Of a stretch of DNA of 64,000 bases, positions 31,304-52,108 are shown one piece after another. Within the stretch, counting starts at the first letter, position 1; each line of letters opens with the position of its first letter. The stretch comes from Albugo candida (taxonomy: Eukaryota): positions 124,001 to 188,000 of the forward strand of contig JBDOQK010000056.1 of the NCBI GenBank assembly GCA_040437565.1, given 5' to 3'. The position numbers and the translations under genes are program-made. Below the pieces are notes generated by a model. That model saw nothing but the letters and a program-made list of their open reading frames with translations. It was not told the DNA's origin and did not search any database.

Positions 31304-32746
31304 TCATGCGCGTCTCCGTGTCTTGCATTTTTCATACAGTCTTTCATCGCTTTGTTTCGGATGTATTCTGGATATTCGCACATAAATAATTTCTTCTGAA
31401 TCCTCGGCTATCTCTTCATCTCTTGATTTCTTCTTTTCGTCTCTTGAAGAACCGGTTCGCCCTGTTTGTGTGCAAGACGAACGTGGATGCTTTGTTGATA
31501 CTGTTAAATTTTTCTTAATATCAATTTCCGGTACTTTTCGAACTTTCCTCAATGTTTGTAACTTTGGCGTTTGAACTGCAGCTCGGCTGCGCGTATGCAA
31601 AGATTGCGCACTTGGAATCCGATCAAGTCGTAAAGTACGGGCGGAAGTAGCACGGTCATTTGGTATTTCACTTTTTGGACAAGCAAGTTGCGCTTGTGTT
31701 TGATCTTGCTCCAATAGAGCGCTCCGCGGTTGCGTATCAAATGGAATGACGTTTGGTTCACAGCATGGATCCGTCGATGCAAAATGCATATCGCTGTCTT
31801 CCACAGTACATTGATCGTGGCATTGGCAGCCACAGGATGTACCGTCGCATGGCTGCGTCCATAATCCTCGTGGCACTTCACTATTGTTTGGATACGCCGC
31901 GACCTCCAGAGACTGTAAAAATTGATTCAGATTGATCTCACCTGATTCATTCATTACCAAAGGTGCACATAATCGTTCCATCTGTTCCTCGGTGCAGAAT
32001 AGCCCAAATTTAATCCGTAAATTACGTTGCAGTGCCTCTACCGTAACGAACGGACTGCACCCAACACGTAACAATTTCATTGCCCGACGATGCTGATGTA
32101 CCCCATTCGGTGTCCGCTCCAACAATTTCACCTGTATGTTCTTCTTAAGCTTGTCAACCGACCAATCAGCCGTTCTTTCGGCGCCCTGAATTAACGCCTC
32201 ATTTCCGTTGATCATGAGAAATTGATCTCGAGCCATTTGCCTCAATTGCTTCGTCTTCTGCTCGCTAGCCTCCTGGCTGCGCACAAAGTACTGCGAGTCG
32301 GTCATCGGCTGCTTCAGAATCTGTTTGACGAATTCACGCAGATCAACCTTCCCCTTCTTATCGTGGTCATATTTGTCAAATAATGCTCGAGCTTCTACGT
32401 CCTCAAGAATGATCCCAAATCTGAGTCGGAGATGCTTCTTGAAAATGGCAAAATCGATCGCATTATCTGCGTCATTGGAACCAAGTAATCGACAAGCTTG
32501 CTGGTAGACATACTTTCCCGAGATTTTATTCCTCTCAAGAATTTTCTCTTGTAATTTACGTTCTGTTTTTGTGACATCCCAGCGAAATTTGGACAACGAA
32601 GTTGGTAACTCGCGTCCCACAGGCTCACGAAAAAGAAGCTTCTCACGTGGACATAACAATTTATCACTAGTCTGAGCGTGAGAGTTGCAGCGACAAACAC
32701 GAGGTTGGTGGGGCAGCGTCATAGGTGCGATTCGCTTTAATGACAC
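31304..32746 (-). CDS. EF-hand domain protein (start uncertain)
   Basis: ALFDKYDHDKKGKVDLREFV, NAIDFAIF and GEINLNQFL within a 480-aa ORF. Confidence 0.75.
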   Translation of the reverse strand: MSLKRIAPMTLPHQPRVCRCNSHAQTSDKLLCPREKLLFREPVGRELPTSLSKFRWDVTKTERKLQEKILERNKISGKYVYQQACRLLGSNDADNAIDFAIFKKHLRLRFGIILEDVEARALFDKYDHDKKGKVDLREFVKQILKQPMTDSQYFVRSQEASEQKTKQLRQMARDQFLMINGNEALIQGAERTADWSVDKLKKNIQVKLLERTPNGVHQHRRAMKLLRVGCSPFVTVEALQRNLRIKFGLFCTEEQMERLCAPLVMNESGEINLNQFLQSLEVAAYPNNSEVPRGLWTQPCDGTSCGCQCHDQCTVEDSDMHFASTDPCCEPNVIPFDTQPRSALLEQDQTQAQLACPKSEIPNDRATSARTLRLDRIPSAQSLHTRSRAAVQTPKLQTLRKVRKVPEIDIKKNLTVSTKHPRSSCTQTGRTGSSRDEKKKSRDEEIAEDSEEIIYVRISRIHPKQSDERLYEKCKTRRRA

Positions 32747-38081: not shown

Positions 38082-38959
38082 GTAAATGTGGCTAAACATT
38101 AGTAATCCATAAGACAGAAAAGCTCATTGCTAATAGAATCGGAGCTAATTCCACTCGCTCTGTTAAAAGCCACCGTCCATTCAAATGTGACGTCTGGCCA
38201 GCTGCTTGTAGTTCTCATCCTCTGGTCAGGCTTTTCTTTGAGCATACGTACGTGGCCGTGAGTCACATCCACGTGTTTTGATGCATTGTCCACTTTTTGT
38301 TCGCAGTAAACCAAACGGTTGACATTTCGTTTGTAGCAAAAGTTCTGCACAGAGGTTTTTGACTCACTGAAGAAATTGGGATTCGGAGTTTGTTTCAATG
38401 TACAAATATATCCACCACATGTTTTCTTTCAATGTGTCACATACGCCTGTGGATAGAGCCCAAGTGTGGANNNNNNNNNNNNNNNNNNNNNNNNNNNNNN
38501 NNNNNNNNNNNNNNNNNNNNNNNNNNNNNNNNNNNNNNNNNNNNNNNNNNNNNNNNNNNNNNNNNNNNNNGTAAATGTGGCTAAACATTAGTAATCCATA
38601 AGACAGAAAAGCTCATTGCTAATAGAATCGGAGCTATTTCCACTCGCTCTGTTAAAAGCCACCGTCCATTCGAATGTGACGTCTGGCCAGCTGCTTGTAG
38701 CCCCCATCCTCTGGTCAGGCTTTTCTTTGAGCATCCCTACGTGGCCGTGAGTCACATCCACGTGTTTTGATGCATTGTCCACTTTTTGTTCGCAGTAAAC
38801 CAAATGGTTGACATTTCGTTTGTAGCAAAAGATCTGCAGAAAGGTTTTTGACTCATTAAAGAAATTGGGATTCGGAGTTTGTATCCATGTACAAATATAT
38901 CCACCACATGTTTTCTTCCAATGTGTCACATACGCCTGTGGATAGAGCCCAAGTGTGGA
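38082..38959. repeat. Two ~389-bp copies about 4% diverged on either side of a gap
   Basis: 38082-38470 versus 38571-38959 differ at about 16 positions by manual comparison. Confidence 0.9.
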
Positions 38960-38972
38960 CGGTTATTTTACA

Positions 38973-41900
38973 ATGAATAGGGGCGTGAGTAACACAAAAA
39001 TGTCATCCAGACTACCATTTCCGAAAATGCTTTCTTCACGGCACGAGAATGATGAAGGCCTCTATTTGAAAGGCCTTACTCCACGTAATGAGACGCAAAA
39101 GTTGGAACTCGATGAGAATTCAAAGGGTTCCACCCCGTCCATGCACTTTTACTCACTCTTTCGACACGCGAATTGGATAGATAAAGGATTGCTGTCTTTC
39201 GCTTGCTTGATGACGACAATGAATGGAAGTATGGTTCCGTGTATGAGCCTGGTGTTGGACAACGCTTTTCGAGCTTTCCAGTCGCCTTTAACAGCTTCGC
39301 ATGTCGATCTTCCCGGAATCACGGCGGTGACGTTCAAGTATATCAGCATCGCCATCACATTGCTCGGTACTGATTCAATCGCCTGTTTTTTGTATGCATA
39401 CGTCGCGGAACGCCAAGTCAAAGCTCTGAGAGAGAAAGTCTTGAGGAAAATGCTGTACATGAATGTTTCGTGGCACGAACGACGAGACAACTCGCTTCTT
39501 TGGAGTCGCATTCATGAAGACACGACCAAAATAAGAGATGCAATGAATCTCAAGTTCCACGACGCGGTTAAATACACGTCTCAGTTCTGGGTTGGATACC
39601 TGATCGCCTTTACTAAGGCCTGGGATCTCAGTCTAGTGATGGCGTGTGTGATTCCAGTGATCGCTATAACGGTAGCATATATGCTTCGAGTGATTCGTGG
39701 GGGTGCGAAAACGGTGCATGAGCATGAGACAGAAGCCGATGCTGTAGTCGAAGAAACCATACGAGGTATCCGTACGATCACGTCATTGAATGCGGGAGGT
39801 CTTGCAGTAAAAACTTACAAATCCAAAGCACAAATGGTCCAAGACGAGAATCTCAATAGAGCCAAACCGATCGCTGGAATGGTTGGGCTTCTTTTTGGTA
39901 CGATTTGGATCATGTTTTCCGTTGGATTTTGGTATGGGCAACGAAAAGTCTTACAAGGAAATGTGAATTCCTCCTCGCACATGTTCCAAGCTATTTATGC
40001 GATTGTGGTTGGAACGCTTGCACTGGGTGAATTATATCCGAGTTTGTCCGCTATTGCAAAAGCCAAAGTGATTGCTGTGCCCATTTTCGAATTCCTGGAA
40101 ACGAAATCGACCATTGATGCGTCTTCAAATGACGGTGACATAATTTCCAATTTCGAAGGGAATATTGAATTCAAGGATGTTCATTTCAGCTACCCAACTC
40201 GGCCTAATGCTTCCGTTTTGCAAAAATATAGCGTCCGCATCGAAGCCGGTCAAAAAGTTGCTTTTGTTGGACCGAAAGGCTCTGGGAAAAGCACGATATC
40301 TTCTTTGTTAGAGCGATTCTATCTTCCCGATCAAGGAAATATCTTTTTAGATGGAAAAGACATTCAAAACCTTCGTATTCGCTGGCTACGGTCGAAAATT
40401 GGTTTGGTGCCTCAGAATCCTGCATTGTTTACCGGTACAATTCGCCATAATATTGATGGTGGCATTGAAGGCATCAGTCATGACGATGTTATTGATGCCG
40501 CTAAGCTCACTGGTGCCCACGAATTCATCATCAGACTTCCCGAGAAGTACGATACATTGGTGAGCGATCAGGGAGTATCGCTGTCCACTGGCCAGAAGCA
40601 GCAAATTGCTATTGCACGGGCAATCGTCCGGAAGCCTGCAATTTTGATTCTGGATCAGGCTACAAGTGTTTTGGATGTTGAGAGCGAAAAGCAGGTCCAC
40701 AAAGTGCTAAATCATCTCACGGAACAAACTCGCATGACAGCCATTTACATCACGCATCGATTGAGTACGATCAAAAACGTCGACAAGATTGTGGTCATGG
40801 CAAAGGGAACCGTTATCGAAGAAGGCACTCATGATGATCTTCTTCAAAATTCGGGTGGAATGTATCACAGTATGTGGAACGAGGAATTGGCGCAGCCGAA
40901 AGAAGTAGGGTCGACTGGGGAAGACAGCGCTCGTGAATTTCCTCGACATTTCTCTTTTTCCGATTCTCTGCATGAAACCAAGCAACAGAGCATGGGTGGA
41001 AGTACTTGGAGTAAAGCCATTGAACTTGTCCGACCAGAGCGGAAACAGATCGGATACGGATTGATTGGTGCCGCTATTCTTGGATGCAGTTATCCCGTTT
41101 TATCGATTTTCATTGGAAAAACTATGGCGGATCTGACACGGGGGTACGCAGACTTTGCAAGAACGCAGGACCAGAAGTACTTGGATAGAATATCGGTGAA
41201 TTGGATGGCGTATGGGCTAAGTCTGGTTGCTGTGGCGTACGTGGTAGCGCTGAGTGCTGGGATGAAATCATATTACTTTCGATTCATGCACGAGAAACTC
41301 CTCTTTCGTCTTCGTATCACTCATTTCAGCAGTCTTTGTCGTCAGAATATGGGCTTCTTCGATCAGAATTCCACTGGGAAACTCACTTCCGAGGTTGCCA
41401 CATGTGCCGCTAAAGGAGCTCATCTTGCAGGGGAAGCTCTTGGACAACTAGCTGAAGCATGTTTTATCACAACCGCGGCCATCATCGTCTCCTTCTTCAG
41501 TGGAAGTTGGATATTGACACTGATCTTGCTGTGTATCTATCCGCTTTTCATCGGTCTACAACTCATCAGATTCGGAAAAGGAAAGCACCACGCTAACTGC
41601 CTGAGTTTGTTAAATGAATCGGGAAATCTGGCGTCAGAAGCTATACATAACATTAAAACCGTCGCTTCATTGGGATCTGAAGAAGATGTTCTCTCGAGGT
41701 ACACTAAAATGATCCACGAAGTCGCCAAGGAAGGAAGACGTCGTGGTCAATGGTACGGTTTTGTTTTCGAGTCGAGTCAGGCTCTGGTGTACGGGACTTA
41801 TATTTTTTTATTTTGGTACGGTGGTAATTTGGTTGCTGACGGATCCATCACACTAGAAGCATTGATCCGCACATTAATGACAGTCTTGATGGCAGCCCAT

Positions 41901-42770
41901 GGTGTAGAAATCGCATTCAATTACTTTTGTGATACTGAAGAAGCCGTTGCTGCCATCAACACTATTGTCGTATTGCGTGATCGAGTCATCCCAATCGATT
42001 CCTTTGACACAAATGGCGACCAAGTTTGTAAAACGGCGGGTGATTTAAAGTTCCACAACGTGAATTTTGCATACTCTGGCCAGGCGAATGCGCTTGAGAA
42101 TTTCAACCTCCATATTCCTTCTGGAAAGACAGTAGTTTTATGTGGCCCAATCGGAGGAGGATTAAGTACGTGTTTTGCTTTGCTTCAGCGTTTCTACGAT
42201 CCATCCAGCGGCCACATTTCCATCGATGGGGTCGATATCAAATTGCTGAATCCCCAAAGATTACGGTCTCAATTCGCTGTTGTGGATCAGGAACCCATTT
42301 TGTTCAGCGGATCGATCAATGAGAATATCGCGTACGGCGTCGAGGTTCGAGGTCATGAAGAAAAGATCATCCAGGCTGCCATTTTGGCCAATGCGCACGG
42401 CTTCATTACCGCATTTCCCGATCAATACAAAACCCAAATTGGCAAATGGGGTGCTCATCTTTCCGCCGATCAGAAGAAGAGAATCGCAATCGCTCGAGCT
42501 TTCTTCAAAGAGGCACCAATTCTACTGCTGGACGAGGTGACAAGTTCGATGGATACCCAAGGCGAAAGGCTTGTCCGTGACGCTCTGGAGAAGATTCGAA
42601 GTGTACGCAAATGCACCACATTAATCATATCCAATCGACTCTCTTCGGCTCAAAACGCCGATTTAATATGTGTGGTGAATGATGGTCAAGTGAAGGAAAG
42701 AGGAACGCATTCGGAATTATTGAAAGAAAACGGTATGTACGCTACTCTCATCAGATCGAGCGCTTTGTAG
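38973..42770 (+). CDS. Full-length ABCB/MDR-type transporter (TMD-NBD-TMD-NBD) with degenerate ATPase motifs; intronless
   Basis: IEFKDVHFSYPTRP, GPKGSGKST, LERFY, IGLVPQNP; second half LQRFYDPSSG, VDQEPILF, GQVKERGTHSELL. Confidence 0.93.
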   Translation: MNRGVSNTKMSSRLPFPKMLSSRHENDEGLYLKGLTPRNETQKLELDENSKGSTPSMHFYSLFRHANWIDKGLLSFACLMTTMNGSMVPCMSLVLDNAFRAFQSPLTASHVDLPGITAVTFKYISIAITLLGTDSIACFLYAYVAERQVKALREKVLRKMLYMNVSWHERRDNSLLWSRIHEDTTKIRDAMNLKFHDAVKYTSQFWVGYLIAFTKAWDLSLVMACVIPVIAITVAYMLRVIRGGAKTVHEHETEADAVVEETIRGIRTITSLNAGGLAVKTYKSKAQMVQDENLNRAKPIAGMVGLLFGTIWIMFSVGFWYGQRKVLQGNVNSSSHMFQAIYAIVVGTLALGELYPSLSAIAKAKVIAVPIFEFLETKSTIDASSNDGDIISNFEGNIEFKDVHFSYPTRPNASVLQKYSVRIEAGQKVAFVGPKGSGKSTISSLLERFYLPDQGNIFLDGKDIQNLRIRWLRSKIGLVPQNPALFTGTIRHNIDGGIEGISHDDVIDAAKLTGAHEFIIRLPEKYDTLVSDQGVSLSTGQKQQIAIARAIVRKPAILILDQATSVLDVESEKQVHKVLNHLTEQTRMTAIYITHRLSTIKNVDKIVVMAKGTVIEEGTHDDLLQNSGGMYHSMWNEELAQPKEVGSTGEDSAREFPRHFSFSDSLHETKQQSMGGSTWSKAIELVRPERKQIGYGLIGAAILGCSYPVLSIFIGKTMADLTRGYADFARTQDQKYLDRISVNWMAYGLSLVAVAYVVALSAGMKSYYFRFMHEKLLFRLRITHFSSLCRQNMGFFDQNSTGKLTSEVATCAAKGAHLAGEALGQLAEACFITTAAIIVSFFSGSWILTLILLCIYPLFIGLQLIRFGKGKHHANCLSLLNESGNLASEAIHNIKTVASLGSEEDVLSRYTKMIHEVAKEGRRRGQWYGFVFESSQALVYGTYIFLFWYGGNLVADGSITLEALIRTLMTVLMAAHGVEIAFNYFCDTEEAVAAINTIVVLRDRVIPIDSFDTNGDQVCKTAGDLKFHNVNFAYSGQANALENFNLHIPSGKTVVLCGPIGGGLSTCFALLQRFYDPSSGHISIDGVDIKLLNPQRLRSQFAVVDQEPILFSGSINENIAYGVEVRGHEEKIIQAAILANAHGFITAFPDQYKTQIGKWGAHLSADQKKRIAIARAFFKEAPILLLDEVTSSMDTQGERLVRDALEKIRSVRKCTTLIISNRLSSAQNADLICVVNDGQVKERGTHSELLKENGMYATLIRSSAL

Positions 42771-43231
42771 CTGCTATCCTTATCGATTCTCATTTTGAGT
42801 AGTTAGCGCATGTTATAAAGAAAGCTTTTACAGTTTATTGAATTGTGTATCTTTTTTCGGGGCTTGAATTCTTTGTGCGATGTGAAAGCGTTCCAGAACG
42901 ATCAATGGAGTGGCAGCGTAGTGTCGGTGCTCGCTTGTGCGCTCGCAGTAAACGCGTTGCGGTCTACAAGTTGCCCTATGGGAAATTCCGCAAAATATTC
43001 CTTAANNNNNNNNNNNNNNNNNNNNNNNNNNNNNNNNNNNNNNNNNNNNNNNNNNNNNNNNNNNNNNNNNNNNNNNNNNNNNNNNNNNNNNNNNNNNNNN
43101 NNNNNCGCAAAATATTCCTTAAAGTTTGAAAGTTCAAGCACAAAAATCGTTTGGTGTTTGATACATTTGCAGCGAATAGTTGTTATTGGACACACAATCA
43201 AAAGCTGCAGGGTGTCTTTGAAGTACAAAAA

Positions 43232-49210: not shown

Positions 49211-51904
49211 CTAGCTGTTTTGTTTATCTACCCATGTCTCACAACTGAGCTTTTTTACTTGCACTACGTCTGCGGAAGCCACGATCGGAGCGTGTATCTG
49301 TAAACTGGGAAGTGTCCCACATATCAAGAGCATGGGATCCATGCATTTGTCTGCGTAGTAATCTCCATATTCCTGTGGATGCATCCCACTGTCTTCATCT
49401 TCCGCTTCTCCTTGTGAATTGATAGAATTCCTTCGTGTACTTGAGTTATTCGCATAAGATGTGGCTCCATTTTTGTAATAAAGCAGCTCTTCACGGAGCA
49501 ATCGGTATTTTTCCTGAGACTTTATAATTTGCGATCGAAAAAGCGTTTGATACTGCTGAAGTGAGCTTTGAAGACACGCCATGTGATTNNNNNNNNNNNN
49601 NNNNNNNNNNNNNNNNNNNNNNNNNNNNNNNNNNNNNNNNNNNNNNNNNNNNNNNNNNNNNNNNNNNNNNNNNNNNNNNNNNNNNNNNTCATCTTCCGCT
49701 TCTCCTTGTGAATTGATAGAATTCCTTCGTGTACTTGAGTTATTCGCATAAGATGTGGCTCCATTTTTGTAATAAAGCAGCTCTTCACGGAGCAATCGGT
49801 ATTTTTCCTGAGACTTTATAATTTGCGATCGAAAAAGCGTTTGATACTGCTGAAGTGAGCTTTGAAGACACGCCATGTGATTCCCTTGTTCTGCCAGTCG
49901 CGTCTCATTGGTGTGTACAGCAACCTCTGCTTGGTTTCGCAAGTTTTGAAGAAGCACTTCTAGCTCTTCCACATGCTTTCTCAACTTCAAATTCTCTTCT
50001 GATAAATAAGACCCTTGCTCGTGACTTTCACTCTCAAGGAATGAACGTGAGAGACTCTGCAGTTTGAGTTTGAGCTCGCAAATCTGAATTCCTCTTTCTT
50101 GAGATTGTATTTGGTGTACACAAACCTTTCCATTCTCGTCGATATCATGGTCAGGATTGTAATTACTTGATTGGATTCCAGGACATCGGGAGAAAGCTTC
50201 AGTGATCAGCAATGAATCAGTTGATGTGGTGATACATTTGATATCGATAATATTGTGCTCTCCAGTCGATAGCACGGTCCTCCAATCAGCCATTTGAAGC
50301 AGCTTTCGCAAACTGAGCGTTGGATAAAGAAGAGCTGGAACGGTGGAGTGTGTATTCACCGATAATAAGGTCACTGTGATCTCCTCCAAGCTCTTCTGCA
50401 AGTCATTCAGTTCTTGGTCTTTGACATTTTTCTCAGCCTGAATCGATTCTTTATCTCGTTCGATTTCAGCATTCCATTCTGTGAGATGCTCACATTTTCG
50501 CTCATACTCTTCCATTCTTCGAAGTAATTGCGTGTGAGACATTTTTAGAGAGCCGTCAAGCTGCTCATTTGAATTCCATTGCAGTTCATTAGATCCCTCA
50601 GGCTTTATTGCATCACGTTTCTCGTTTTCACGACCCGTATCGAGAGAGTCGGCTCTGGTTTCCAAATCATGCTTGAGAGCTTGTATCTCTCGTTTTCCAG
50701 CCGATACAGCTTCCATTGCTTGCAGGTATAGCTCTTTGAGCTTTTGTTTCGGCAAATCATCGTCCTCCAATGGTGAAGAAACCAGCATATTTTTCAGCTC
50801 TTTTGCACGTAATCCAAATCGAAGAGTCGACATGGTTTCTGACAGATTATATGTGCTGCAGGATGCGGTCAGTATCAGAGCTATTTTCGCTTTTCCACTC
50901 AGAGAATCTTGCAAAATGCGAGTGAGTTTACTGTCCCGGTACGGAACGTGTTTCTTCCCTTCAGCCAGAGCTTTGATCACATTACTTAACGCTGAAAGCG
51001 ATTTGTTGATGGAAATTGCTTCCTGGAGAGCCTTACCACTGACATTCGATTTATTCACAAGCTCTGATCCAGCCAAGTCAACAATATACATTGTACAGCT
51101 CTTCAGCTTCATCCGTGACCCATCCACTAACGTTTGATAGCGCGCCATCGTTATTGTAAAGACGCTGTGACTTCGACTTGAATCCTTGTTCATCTTGGTC
51201 GATGTCACAGCTCTTTGCTGAGTCCCCGATCGAACGTATTCAATCATTGTGCCAGCGTCTGGAGCAACCAGCTCGGTCATATCACTGATGAAGACACCAC
51301 GTTGTGAGCATTCGCGTACGCGAAGAAGTCCTCCAGTGTTACGCGCATTCCCAGCCGAAACCGATGCTGAAGACCGACCACTCCTATCCGTACAATGCAA
51401 CAAATCACGAATTTGCTCCAAGTAAATCTCCACGAATGAAGCAGTAAATTCGAGACAAGTGGAATCGTCTTGATACGTCTCCTTCTCACGATACAAGTCT
51501 CGTATTAACCGCGGAATGATCCCGTCACTCTGATTCACAATCGATTTTGACTGCTTGGTGCAGGCATCCATGCAGCCTGAGATCGTGTGCGTCTTTCCGG
51601 AACCAGTCTGCCCGTACGCGAAAATGGTGCAGTTACCACCTTGGATGAAGTCATGTACCAAGTGTTTTGCGCTGTTCTCATACACTTGTTCTTGTGTGGC
51701 AGTAACGTCAAAGATACGATCAAAAGTGCAGCGTAAATCGTCGACTTCACAATGAGCGCTGCGGATATATACTCCGCGATCGTCAACTACTGTCGAACAG
51801 GAACTAGCACCGACTTCTTTCTCTAAGGCGTTCTGGGGCCGAAGTCGGCAGTACACTTGGATGTTGAAAGGAATTTCCTGCGAGTCGGAAGAGGAGTCTG
51901 GCAT
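49211..51904 (-). CDS. Kinesin motor protein (kinesin-1-like N-terminal motor with coiled coil)
   Basis: IQVYCRLRP, FAYGQTGSGKTHT, SFVEIYLE, SSRSH, VDLAGSE, HVPYRDSKLTRILQDSLSG. A ~65-aa duplication across the gap is artefactual. Confidence 0.95.
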   Translation of the reverse strand: MPDSSSDSQEIPFNIQVYCRLRPQNALEKEVGASSCSTVVDDRGVYIRSAHCEVDDLRCTFDRIFDVTATQEQVYENSAKHLVHDFIQGGNCTIFAYGQTGSGKTHTISGCMDACTKQSKSIVNQSDGIIPRLIRDLYREKETYQDDSTCLEFTASFVEIYLEQIRDLLHCTDRSGRSSASVSAGNARNTGGLLRVRECSQRGVFISDMTELVAPDAGTMIEYVRSGTQQRAVTSTKMNKDSSRSHSVFTITMARYQTLVDGSRMKLKSCTMYIVDLAGSELVNKSNVSGKALQEAISINKSLSALSNVIKALAEGKKHVPYRDSKLTRILQDSLSGKAKIALILTASCSTYNLSETMSTLRFGLRAKELKNMLVSSPLEDDDLPKQKLKELYLQAMEAVSAGKREIQALKHDLETRADSLDTGRENEKRDAIKPEGSNELQWNSNEQLDGSLKMSHTQLLRRMEEYERKCEHLTEWNAEIERDKESIQAEKNVKDQELNDLQKSLEEITVTLLSVNTHSTVPALLYPTLSLRKLLQMADWRTVLSTGEHNIIDIKCITTSTDSLLITEAFSRCPGIQSSNYNPDHDIDENGKVCVHQIQSQERGIQICELKLKLQSLSRSFLESESHEQGSYLSEENLKLRKHVEELEVLLQNLRNQAEVAVHTNETRLAEQGNHMACLQSSLQQYQTLFRSQIIKSQEKYRLLREELLYYKNGATSYANNSSTRRNSINSQGEAEDXXXXXXXXXXXXXXXXXXXXXXXXXXXXXXXXXXNHMACLQSSLQQYQTLFRSQIIKSQEKYRLLREELLYYKNGATSYANNSSTRRNSINSQGEAEDEDSGMHPQEYGDYYADKCMDPMLLICGTLPSLQIHAPIVASADVVQVKKLSCETWVDKQNS

Positions 51905-52108
51905 CAAGAAGATGAGATAATAGCTTCACGAGAAGAAACAGAATTCTTAGTTCGTAGGATGCATTTAGATGTGTAAATATAGCGTAGTAGCTGCTTTTCT
52001 AATCGAATCAGTTCAGAAAGAATGATTGTAGCATTCTTCTAGGAATGCGATGCAGGGCCGAGACGTTCTGATTGGTGGAATTCGTGCTAGAACTGTTTGT
52101 TTGGCGGA

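Follow-up and report, generated by a model that had tools for sequence, protein, structure and literature searches.

A full-length ABCB-type protein of Albugo without a consensus ATP site is maintained by purifying selection

We analysed a 64,000-nucleotide stretch of Albugo candida DNA (GenBank assembly GCA_040437565.1, contig JBDOQK010000056.1, positions 124,001 to 188,000 of the forward strand; hereafter, the window), which harbours a gene for an ABC protein of the ABCB type. The only long open reading frame (ORF) at this locus extends from 38955 to 42770 on the forward strand and comprises, from the ATG at 38973, 1265 codons without a stop. No run of N falls within the coding sequence (CDS), which is flanked by scaffold gaps of 100 N at 38471-38570 and 43006-43105. 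Pfam detected two ABC_membrane domains (PF00664, E 3.5e-74) and two ABC_tran domains (PF00005, E 9.7e-53) in the encoded protein, and its best matches among solved structures were ABCB4, ABCB1 and ABCB11, with E values of about 1e-207 to 1e-201. Therefore, the gene encodes a full-length ABCB-type protein in which transmembrane domains (TMD) and nucleotide-binding domains (NBD) follow each other as TMD1-NBD1-TMD2-NBD2 on one chain. A first-pass annotation, made from the DNA letters, had proposed an intact full-length ABCB ORF of about 1265 codons free of stops and frameshifts, with which the ORF listing, the Pfam domains and the ABCB alignments agree. The gene and its domains are located as follows:

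38973..42770, + strand: complete CDS of the full-length ABCB-type protein, 1265 codons plus stop
39147..40097, + strand: TMD1, amino acids 59-375, from Pfam ABC_membrane and the long helices of the AlphaFold2 (AF2) model
40155..40892, + strand: NBD1, amino acids 395-640, from homologue alignments and translation
41043..41972, + strand: TMD2, amino acids 691-1000, with the Pfam ABC_membrane stretch at 694-974
42030..42767, + strand: NBD2, amino acids 1020-1265, from homologue alignments and translation

The start codon is uncertain, since further in-frame ATGs stand at codons 10 and 19, and the database gene models of A. candida and A. laibachii begin at later Met codons (the second or third in-frame ATG). 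The AF2 model of the protein has a mean pLDDT (predicted local distance difference test score) of 81.9, with values below 50 in the linker only. When compared by Foldseek with NBD-closed ABCB1 structures, it gave TM-scores of 0.90-0.92 at an identity of about 31-32%, a likeness that is driven by the alignment of canonical homologues and is uninformative on real closure of the NBDs. In public databases, the gene goes under the names 'unnamed protein product', 'Bile salt export pump' (assigned automatically) and 'ABC superfamily putative', and no paper mentioning its accession numbers was found in the open-access literature searched.

Each ATP site of an ABC protein is composed of the Walker A and B motifs and the H-loop of one NBD and of the signature motif of the other. 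The motifs were read from the translation of exact coordinates, and their homologous positions were verified by alignment to ABCB4 and 11 homologues. The states found in the two NBDs are the following:

NBD1 A-loop FSYPTRP: Tyr retained
NBD1 Walker A GPKGSGKST, 40269-40295, + strand: canonical
NBD1 Q-loop VPQNP: Gln retained
NBD1 signature LSTGQ, 40581-40595, + strand: third position Gly to Thr; part of composite site 2
NBD1 Walker B ILILDQ, 40641-40658, + strand: catalytic Glu to Gln (Q562, codon CAG at 40656-40658; the DQ pair at 40653-40658)
NBD1 H-loop ITHRL: canonical His
NBD2 A-loop FAYSGQA: Tyr retained
NBD2 Walker A GPIGGGLST, 42144-42170, + strand: Lys to Leu (L1064, codon TTA at 42162-42164)
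NBD2 Q-loop VDQEP: Gln retained
NBD2 signature LSADQ, 42459-42473, + strand: fourth position Gly to Asp; part of composite site 1
NBD2 Walker B ILLLDE: canonical Asp-Glu
NBD2 H-loop ISNRL, 42627-42641, + strand: His to Asn (N1221)

The five deviant motifs, ILILDQ, LSTGQ, GPIGGGLST, LSADQ and ISNRL, had been quoted with their positions in the first-pass annotation, and all of them proved correct by translation. Composite site 1 brings together Q562 and LSADQ, while composite site 2 contains L1064 and N1221 together with LSTGQ. In neither of them are the Walker A Lys, the Walker B Glu, the H-loop His and a partnering LSGGQ signature all present. In site 1, the replaced Walker B Glu of NBD1 and the deviant signature of NBD2 (ILILDQ and LSADQ) correspond to the pattern of a degenerate first nucleotide-binding site (NBS1), as described in passages of PMC7756269 and PMC7544095. 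A consensus, hydrolysis-competent NBS2 was not found either, its Lys and His being changed to Leu and Asn in NBD2 and its signature in NBD1 reading LSTGQ. As far as the motifs tell, the unusual part is the added loss in site 2, since site 1 alone matches the classical degenerate NBS1. Within site 1, the change of the Walker B Glu to Gln and the Asp gained by the facing signature resemble a swap of charge, and this combination is conserved in both Albugo species in which the gene was found.

The closest proteins to the window protein were those of a 99%-identical A. candida cluster (P0001), which includes CCI43569.1 (the 'unnamed protein product', automatically called 'Bile salt export pump' in UniProt), followed by a 73%-identical protein of A. 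laibachii Nc14 (P0002, accession CCA17254.1); all others showed at most 42% identity. Among the best 120 of 2261 matches, P0001 and P0002 were the only Albugo proteins. When the TMD2-NBD2 half was compared by HMMER with 1.84 billion cluster representatives, the cluster of P0002 scored 1233 bits and the next match 776 bits. The degenerate ABCB lineage is, as far as public data go, limited to Albugo. The A. laibachii orthologue also has an intact ORF and carries the same Glu to Gln, Lys to Leu, His to Asn and Gly to Asp substitutions, that is, degenerate motifs where canonical ones might have stood. The substitutions are common to both Albugo species and are therefore older than the split between A. 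candida and A. laibachii. Within A. candida, six out of six cluster members are full length with identical motifs, five of them being distinct from the window protein, and 21 of 1265 columns vary, seven of which fall in the N-terminal tail (amino acids 1-58; 38973-39146). Furthermore, a contig from sequencing run X1 spans the whole gene without any difference from the window at a motif codon, so that the substitutions hold in independent sequence, both in this contig and in five other A. candida alleles.

To see how rare these motif states are, residues were counted in the motif columns of 254 proteins of 1000-1500 residues, taken from 268 relatives gathered. Each catalytic column was occupied by the consensus residue in 246-254 of these 254 full-length relatives. 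The column of the NBD1 Walker B catalytic residue contained Glu in 248 of them, the Asp that precedes it being retained in the window protein, and the third signature position of NBD1 was Gly in 251 (Ala in A. laibachii). In NBD2, the Walker A column held Lys in 249 rows, a gap in three and Leu only in the two Albugo entries; the fourth signature position was Gly in 250 and the H-loop position His in 247, with Asp and Asn, respectively, occurring in Albugo only. Catalytic residues were substituted in both composite sites only in the Albugo proteins (entries P0001 and P0002). Four other rows were flagged in both sites, P0169, P0187 and P0219 through gaps only, which are probably partial gene models, and P0012 with milder changes. 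One deviant site was present in nine of the 254 rows, including three ABCB11-like proteins with Walker B Glu to Met and signature Gly to Arg in site 1; in the fish ABCB11 rows, these two changes fall in the same columns as those of site 1 in Albugo. A scan of the 120 best matches with regular expressions was rejected in favour of this alignment count, because most of the 34 proteins that it flagged were false positives in transmembrane segments.

The deviation extends beyond the catalytic residues. Of the NBD columns, 134 reach at least 95% conservation among 249 other ABCBs; 24 of these are changed in the window protein (110 being retained) and 26 in the A. laibachii protein, with 22 changes common to both species. 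In the other ABCBs, the median was one change and the maximum 18, the latter in P0012 from Globisporangium polare. The NBD2 of P0012 is degenerate, with GASGDSKNA in the Walker A region, VGNKP as Q-loop, LSSGQ as signature, DELTRGLD after Walker B and IDSRLS as H-loop, while its NBD1 motifs are canonical; its terminal branch in the tree described below is long (0.81). As judged from these motifs, an ATP site may have been lost independently in P0012, within the oomycete ABCB subclade to which the Albugo proteins also belong.

The nearest relatives outside Albugo, at 38-42% identity, were proteins from Globisporangium splendens (P0004), Logan (P0005 and P0007) and Aphanomyces (P0006 and P0008). 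In a quick maximum-likelihood tree (LG+G4, 27 rows), the Albugo proteins nest in an oomycete ABCB subclade with G. splendens, G. polare, two Logan proteins and Aphanomyces, with values of 99-100 in the Shimodaira-Hasegawa-like approximate likelihood ratio test (SH-aLRT). The ABCBs of plants and animals and a second oomycete clade of ABCBs (Phytophthora, Pythium, Hyaloperonospora) stand apart from this subclade, all of whose non-Albugo members are canonical at both sites except P0012. The Albugo stem branch is long, with 1.09 changes per site (1.05 in the TMD partition and 0.73 in the NBD partition). We considered accelerated evolution as a sign of a functional shift and dropped the idea, since the neighbouring genes are about equally far from other oomycetes: the kinesin shows 40-43% identity to them (in matches covering 75-80% of the query, and higher in shorter ones) and the EF-hand protein 45-48%. 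The long stem is largely a lineage effect that is not specific to the ABCB gene.

We then looked at whether the gene is maintained or decaying. The X1 contig, of 4545 nt and at a depth of 46, differs from the window CDS at 29 positions, 21 of them synonymous and eight non-synonymous, for 864 synonymous and 2931 non-synonymous sites. In this within-species comparison, the ratio of non-synonymous to synonymous differences per site (pN/pS) is about 0.11, far from 1 (binomial p = 1.9e-8 against neutrality), and within the two NBDs there are 12 synonymous and four non-synonymous differences. When neutral point mutations were simulated on the CDS up to 27% protein divergence, a mean of 17 stops and a minimum of nine arose, and none of 300 runs remained free of stops. 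Between A. candida and A. laibachii, identity is 73% in TMD1, 78% in NBD1, 74% in TMD2 and 78% in NBD2, compared with 50% at the N-terminus and 40% in the linker, so that constraint acts on all four domains but not on the linker. The overall identity of 73% resembles that of the neighbouring kinesin (70%) and EF-hand protein (75%) between the same two species. In NBD1, identity between the species is higher in the motif segments than elsewhere in the domain (88% versus 75%, p = 0.036). The marks of a pseudogene were not found: no copy (the window, six A. candida members, A. laibachii) shows a stop, a frameshift or a truncation, and the non-synonymous rate is below the synonymous one. Therefore, purifying selection keeps the ABCB gene intact, and it is not a gene in decay. 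Of 201 pattern stretches that the Albugo alignment matched in a scan of metagenomes, none was confirmed.

The neighbours of the ABCB gene are ordinary housekeeping genes, coding for HisG, eRF1, a BK-channel-like protein, the kinesin and the EF-hand protein. The genes at 31304-32746 (-), 38973-42770 (+) and 49211-51907 (-) have A. laibachii orthologues with neighbouring UniProt accessions (F0W7Z-, F0W801 and F0W805), one of which is named AlNc14C32G2947; this accession numbering, the sole basis for the comparison, hints at a gene order conserved between the two Albugo species. The window contains 14 runs of exactly 100 N, one of them (49589-49688) inside the kinesin ORF and two flanking the ABCB gene. 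The differences between X1 and the window over 38887-43000 are unevenly spread, with none in 38887-39796 and all 29 in 39797-42446, a distribution compatible with recombination or introgression among A. candida lineages. Upstream of 38705, X1 continues into unlike sequence at a contig depth of 230 versus 46, as if a repeat were located there, and the X1 contigs look like DNA with a repeat, the 'RNA?' label of this run being a guess. Runs X18, X19 and X20, for which the same label is likewise a guess, gave short ABCB contigs of 151-466 nt at depths of 2-6.

By the usual working rule, at least one consensus ATP site is required in an ABC exporter. ABCB1 stops functioning upon mutation of a Walker A motif or of a Walker B Glu, as stated in parts of PMC7756269, where 'residual ATPase activity' is reported for an ABCB1 mutated in its two Walker B Glu residues. 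Mutation of E556 alone renders ABCB1 incompetent for transport through ATP occlusion, and natural degenerate sites bear extra changes by which they escape this type of arrest, according to passages of PMC7544095. G551 of CFTR is the fourth residue of LSGGQ, and the section of PMC2606936 dealing with G551D describes this change as abolishing ATP-dependent gating. Sections of PMC4652930 show for CTS, a plant ABCD transporter, that one consensus site is enough and that function is lost when a mutation results in two degenerate sites. For TmrAB, portions of PMC7205462 and PMC13040083 indicate that ATP binding alone can power the translocation step. In the open-access literature, we found no natural ABC exporter degenerate in both sites, only engineered or single-site cases.

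When set beside known systems, the Albugo protein has the TMD-NBD-TMD-NBD order and the Pfam pairs of ABCB1 and ABCB4 (P-glycoprotein and MDR3), full-length type I ABC exporters (type IV fold) that are among its best solved-structure matches. However, these have two consensus ATP sites, whereas the Albugo protein deviates in both signatures, at the Walker B Glu in NBD1 and at the Walker A Lys and H-loop His in NBD2. The pair of changes in site 1 is as in ABCB11 (BSEP), TAP1/2, the ABCC family, TM287/288 and TmrAB, but exporters of the ABCB11, TAP and ABCC type retain a consensus NBS2 that powers transport, where the Albugo protein is devoid of Lys and His. Precedents for an exporter fold whose output is gating or regulation by nucleotide instead of pumping are CFTR, a channel, and SUR, a channel regulator, and the Asp of the Albugo LSADQ stands at the position of CFTR G551D. 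CFTR and SUR belong to the ABCC subfamily and each keeps one hydrolytic or consensus site, so that the analogy to Albugo is one of functional inference only, within the common ABC fold.

The first-pass annotation had considered both composite sites impaired, and each of them is indeed devoid of at least one residue found necessary by mutagenesis in ABCB1, CFTR or CTS. The losses in site 1 and site 2 would make a normal export cycle driven by ATP hydrolysis very unlikely in the Albugo protein. All four domains being under selection and the nucleotide pocket of NBD1 being intact, binding of nucleotide without turnover appears to be the most economical reading, and the translocation powered by ATP binding alone in TmrAB makes a binding-only device plausible. 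We therefore favour, as probable though well short of certain, a protein without a consensus hydrolytic site that is maintained by selection, does not pump and uses nucleotide as a ligand and not as fuel. It would belong to an oomycete-specific branch of full-length, P-glycoprotein-like ABCB exporters. The consensus catalytic machinery of both ATP sites would have been lost before A. candida and A. laibachii separated, purifying selection having since then kept the intact four-domain protein. Site 1 retains the Lys, Asp, His, Gln and A-loop Tyr with which, by mutagenesis of homologous positions, Mg-ATP could still be bound; devoid of the catalytic Glu and facing a signature Asp at the CFTR G551D position, it would be a degenerate site that holds ATP. 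Site 2, normally the motor, would fail for want of the phosphate-binding Walker A Lys and of the linchpin His of the H-loop. ATP held mainly by NBD1 might then stabilise or gate a conformation of the still-constrained TMDs, with a facilitated or gated pathway, a channel, or a regulatory or receptor role like those of CFTR and SUR as the output.

Several points weigh against this reading. We infer the loss of hydrolysis from the behaviour of other proteins, slow hydrolysis at site 1 is conceivable with its Walker A Lys, Q-loop Gln and H-loop His retained, and the ligand-gated or regulatory mode is hypothetical. The estimate of constraint comes from one strain contig with 29 differences, within the species only. 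In NBD2, conservation of the motif segments does not significantly exceed that of the remaining domain (84% versus 75%, p = 0.16), which leaves a continuing nucleotide role of NBD2 unsupported. The NBD/TMD branch-length ratio, on a fixed topology, is 0.97 for the Albugo pair and 0.69 for the Albugo stem, compared with 0.57 for the whole 27-sequence tree and 0.25, 0.59 and 0.86 in three canonical pairs; thus, constraint on the NBDs looks somewhat relaxed in Albugo.

The alternatives differ in which of these observations they can accommodate. Errors of sequencing or assembly could be suspected behind the substitutions because the window is a gapped draft with 14 N runs; the chance of this is negligible, given that no gap lies in the CDS, that five distinct A. 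candida alleles from other assemblies and the X1 contig carry identical motifs, and that the key substitutions are also present in the A. laibachii protein. The 24 changed near-invariant NBD columns and the long Albugo stem would agree with early decay of a redundant paralogue or a unitary pseudogene that is free of stops by chance. The first-pass annotation had in fact left the choice between a pseudo-ATPase, with nucleotide sensor, regulator or passive conduit as putative roles, and a paralogue in early decay. The former stands, as a conserved pseudo-ATPase, as the best reading, while decay is highly improbable: the ORF is intact, with the same substitutions, in the A. laibachii orthologue and throughout the six members of the A. 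candida cluster, pN/pS is low, no neutral simulation stayed free of stops, the two species differ in this gene about as much as in its housekeeping neighbours, and the linker and the N-terminus diverge much faster than the domains.

Exporter-fold proteins that have no NBDs, such as SbmA, act as passive or ion-gradient-coupled carriers. The NBDs of the Albugo protein might similarly be structural ballast, with the TMDs alone serving as such a carrier and nucleotide playing no role, an idea which both degenerate sites, NBDs that evolve about as fast as the TMDs and the motif segments of NBD2 would suit. We regard it as quite improbable in view of the conservation of the NBDs between the species, which far exceeds that of the linker, the 110 near-invariant NBD columns kept, the pocket motifs of NBD1, canonical except for the Glu, and the 12 synonymous among 16 strain differences in the NBDs. 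A less remote alternative, though still an unlikely one, is that of a working exporter driven by slow or unconventional ATP hydrolysis, in which site 1 hydrolyses ATP without the Walker B Glu and site 2 is its non-catalytic partner, catalysis relying on the Walker A Lys, Q-loop Gln and H-loop His that site 1 still has, possibly with help from the new signature Asp. E to Q mutants of some ABC NBDs, such as HlyB, retain part of their activity. The residual ATPase activity of the double Walker B Glu mutant of ABCB1 (a statement within PMC7756269) points the same way, as do the Walker A motif GPKGSGKST of NBD1, the residues that this domain retains in the A-loop (Tyr), Q-loop (Gln), Walker B (Asp) and H-loop (His), the higher conservation of the NBD1 motif segments and the constraint on all four domains. 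On the other hand, the single E556 mutation already arrests transport by ABCB1 (as passages of PMC7544095 have it), the opposing signature Asp occupies the position at which G551D abolishes the ATP-dependent gating of CFTR (as described in part of PMC2606936), site 2 lacks both Lys and His against the rule of one consensus site, and no natural exporter with the same layout was found in the open-access literature.

The Albugo protein is a natural full-length ABCB that breaks the one-consensus-site rule, yet it is intact and under purifying selection in two species. In this, it contrasts with the engineered proteins with two degenerate sites, which are described as dead in parts of PMC4652930 and PMC7756269. 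It would provide a test case for what ATP binding without hydrolysis achieves in an exporter fold. If the protein proves to hydrolyse ATP, it would have a non-canonical catalytic arrangement. More tentatively, and with less than even odds, Albugo may have evolved, independently of CFTR and SUR, a full-length exporter-fold protein with no hydrolytic site, in which ATP serves purely as a ligand bound at NBD1 and gates or stabilises the TMDs. Such a protein might act where this obligate biotroph meets its host, as a channel, facilitator or regulatory subunit, and no natural 'zero consensus site' ABC exporter would have been shown to be functional before it. The protein also bears on how pumps evolve into channels or regulators, and on the role that such a protein may have in an obligate plant parasite.

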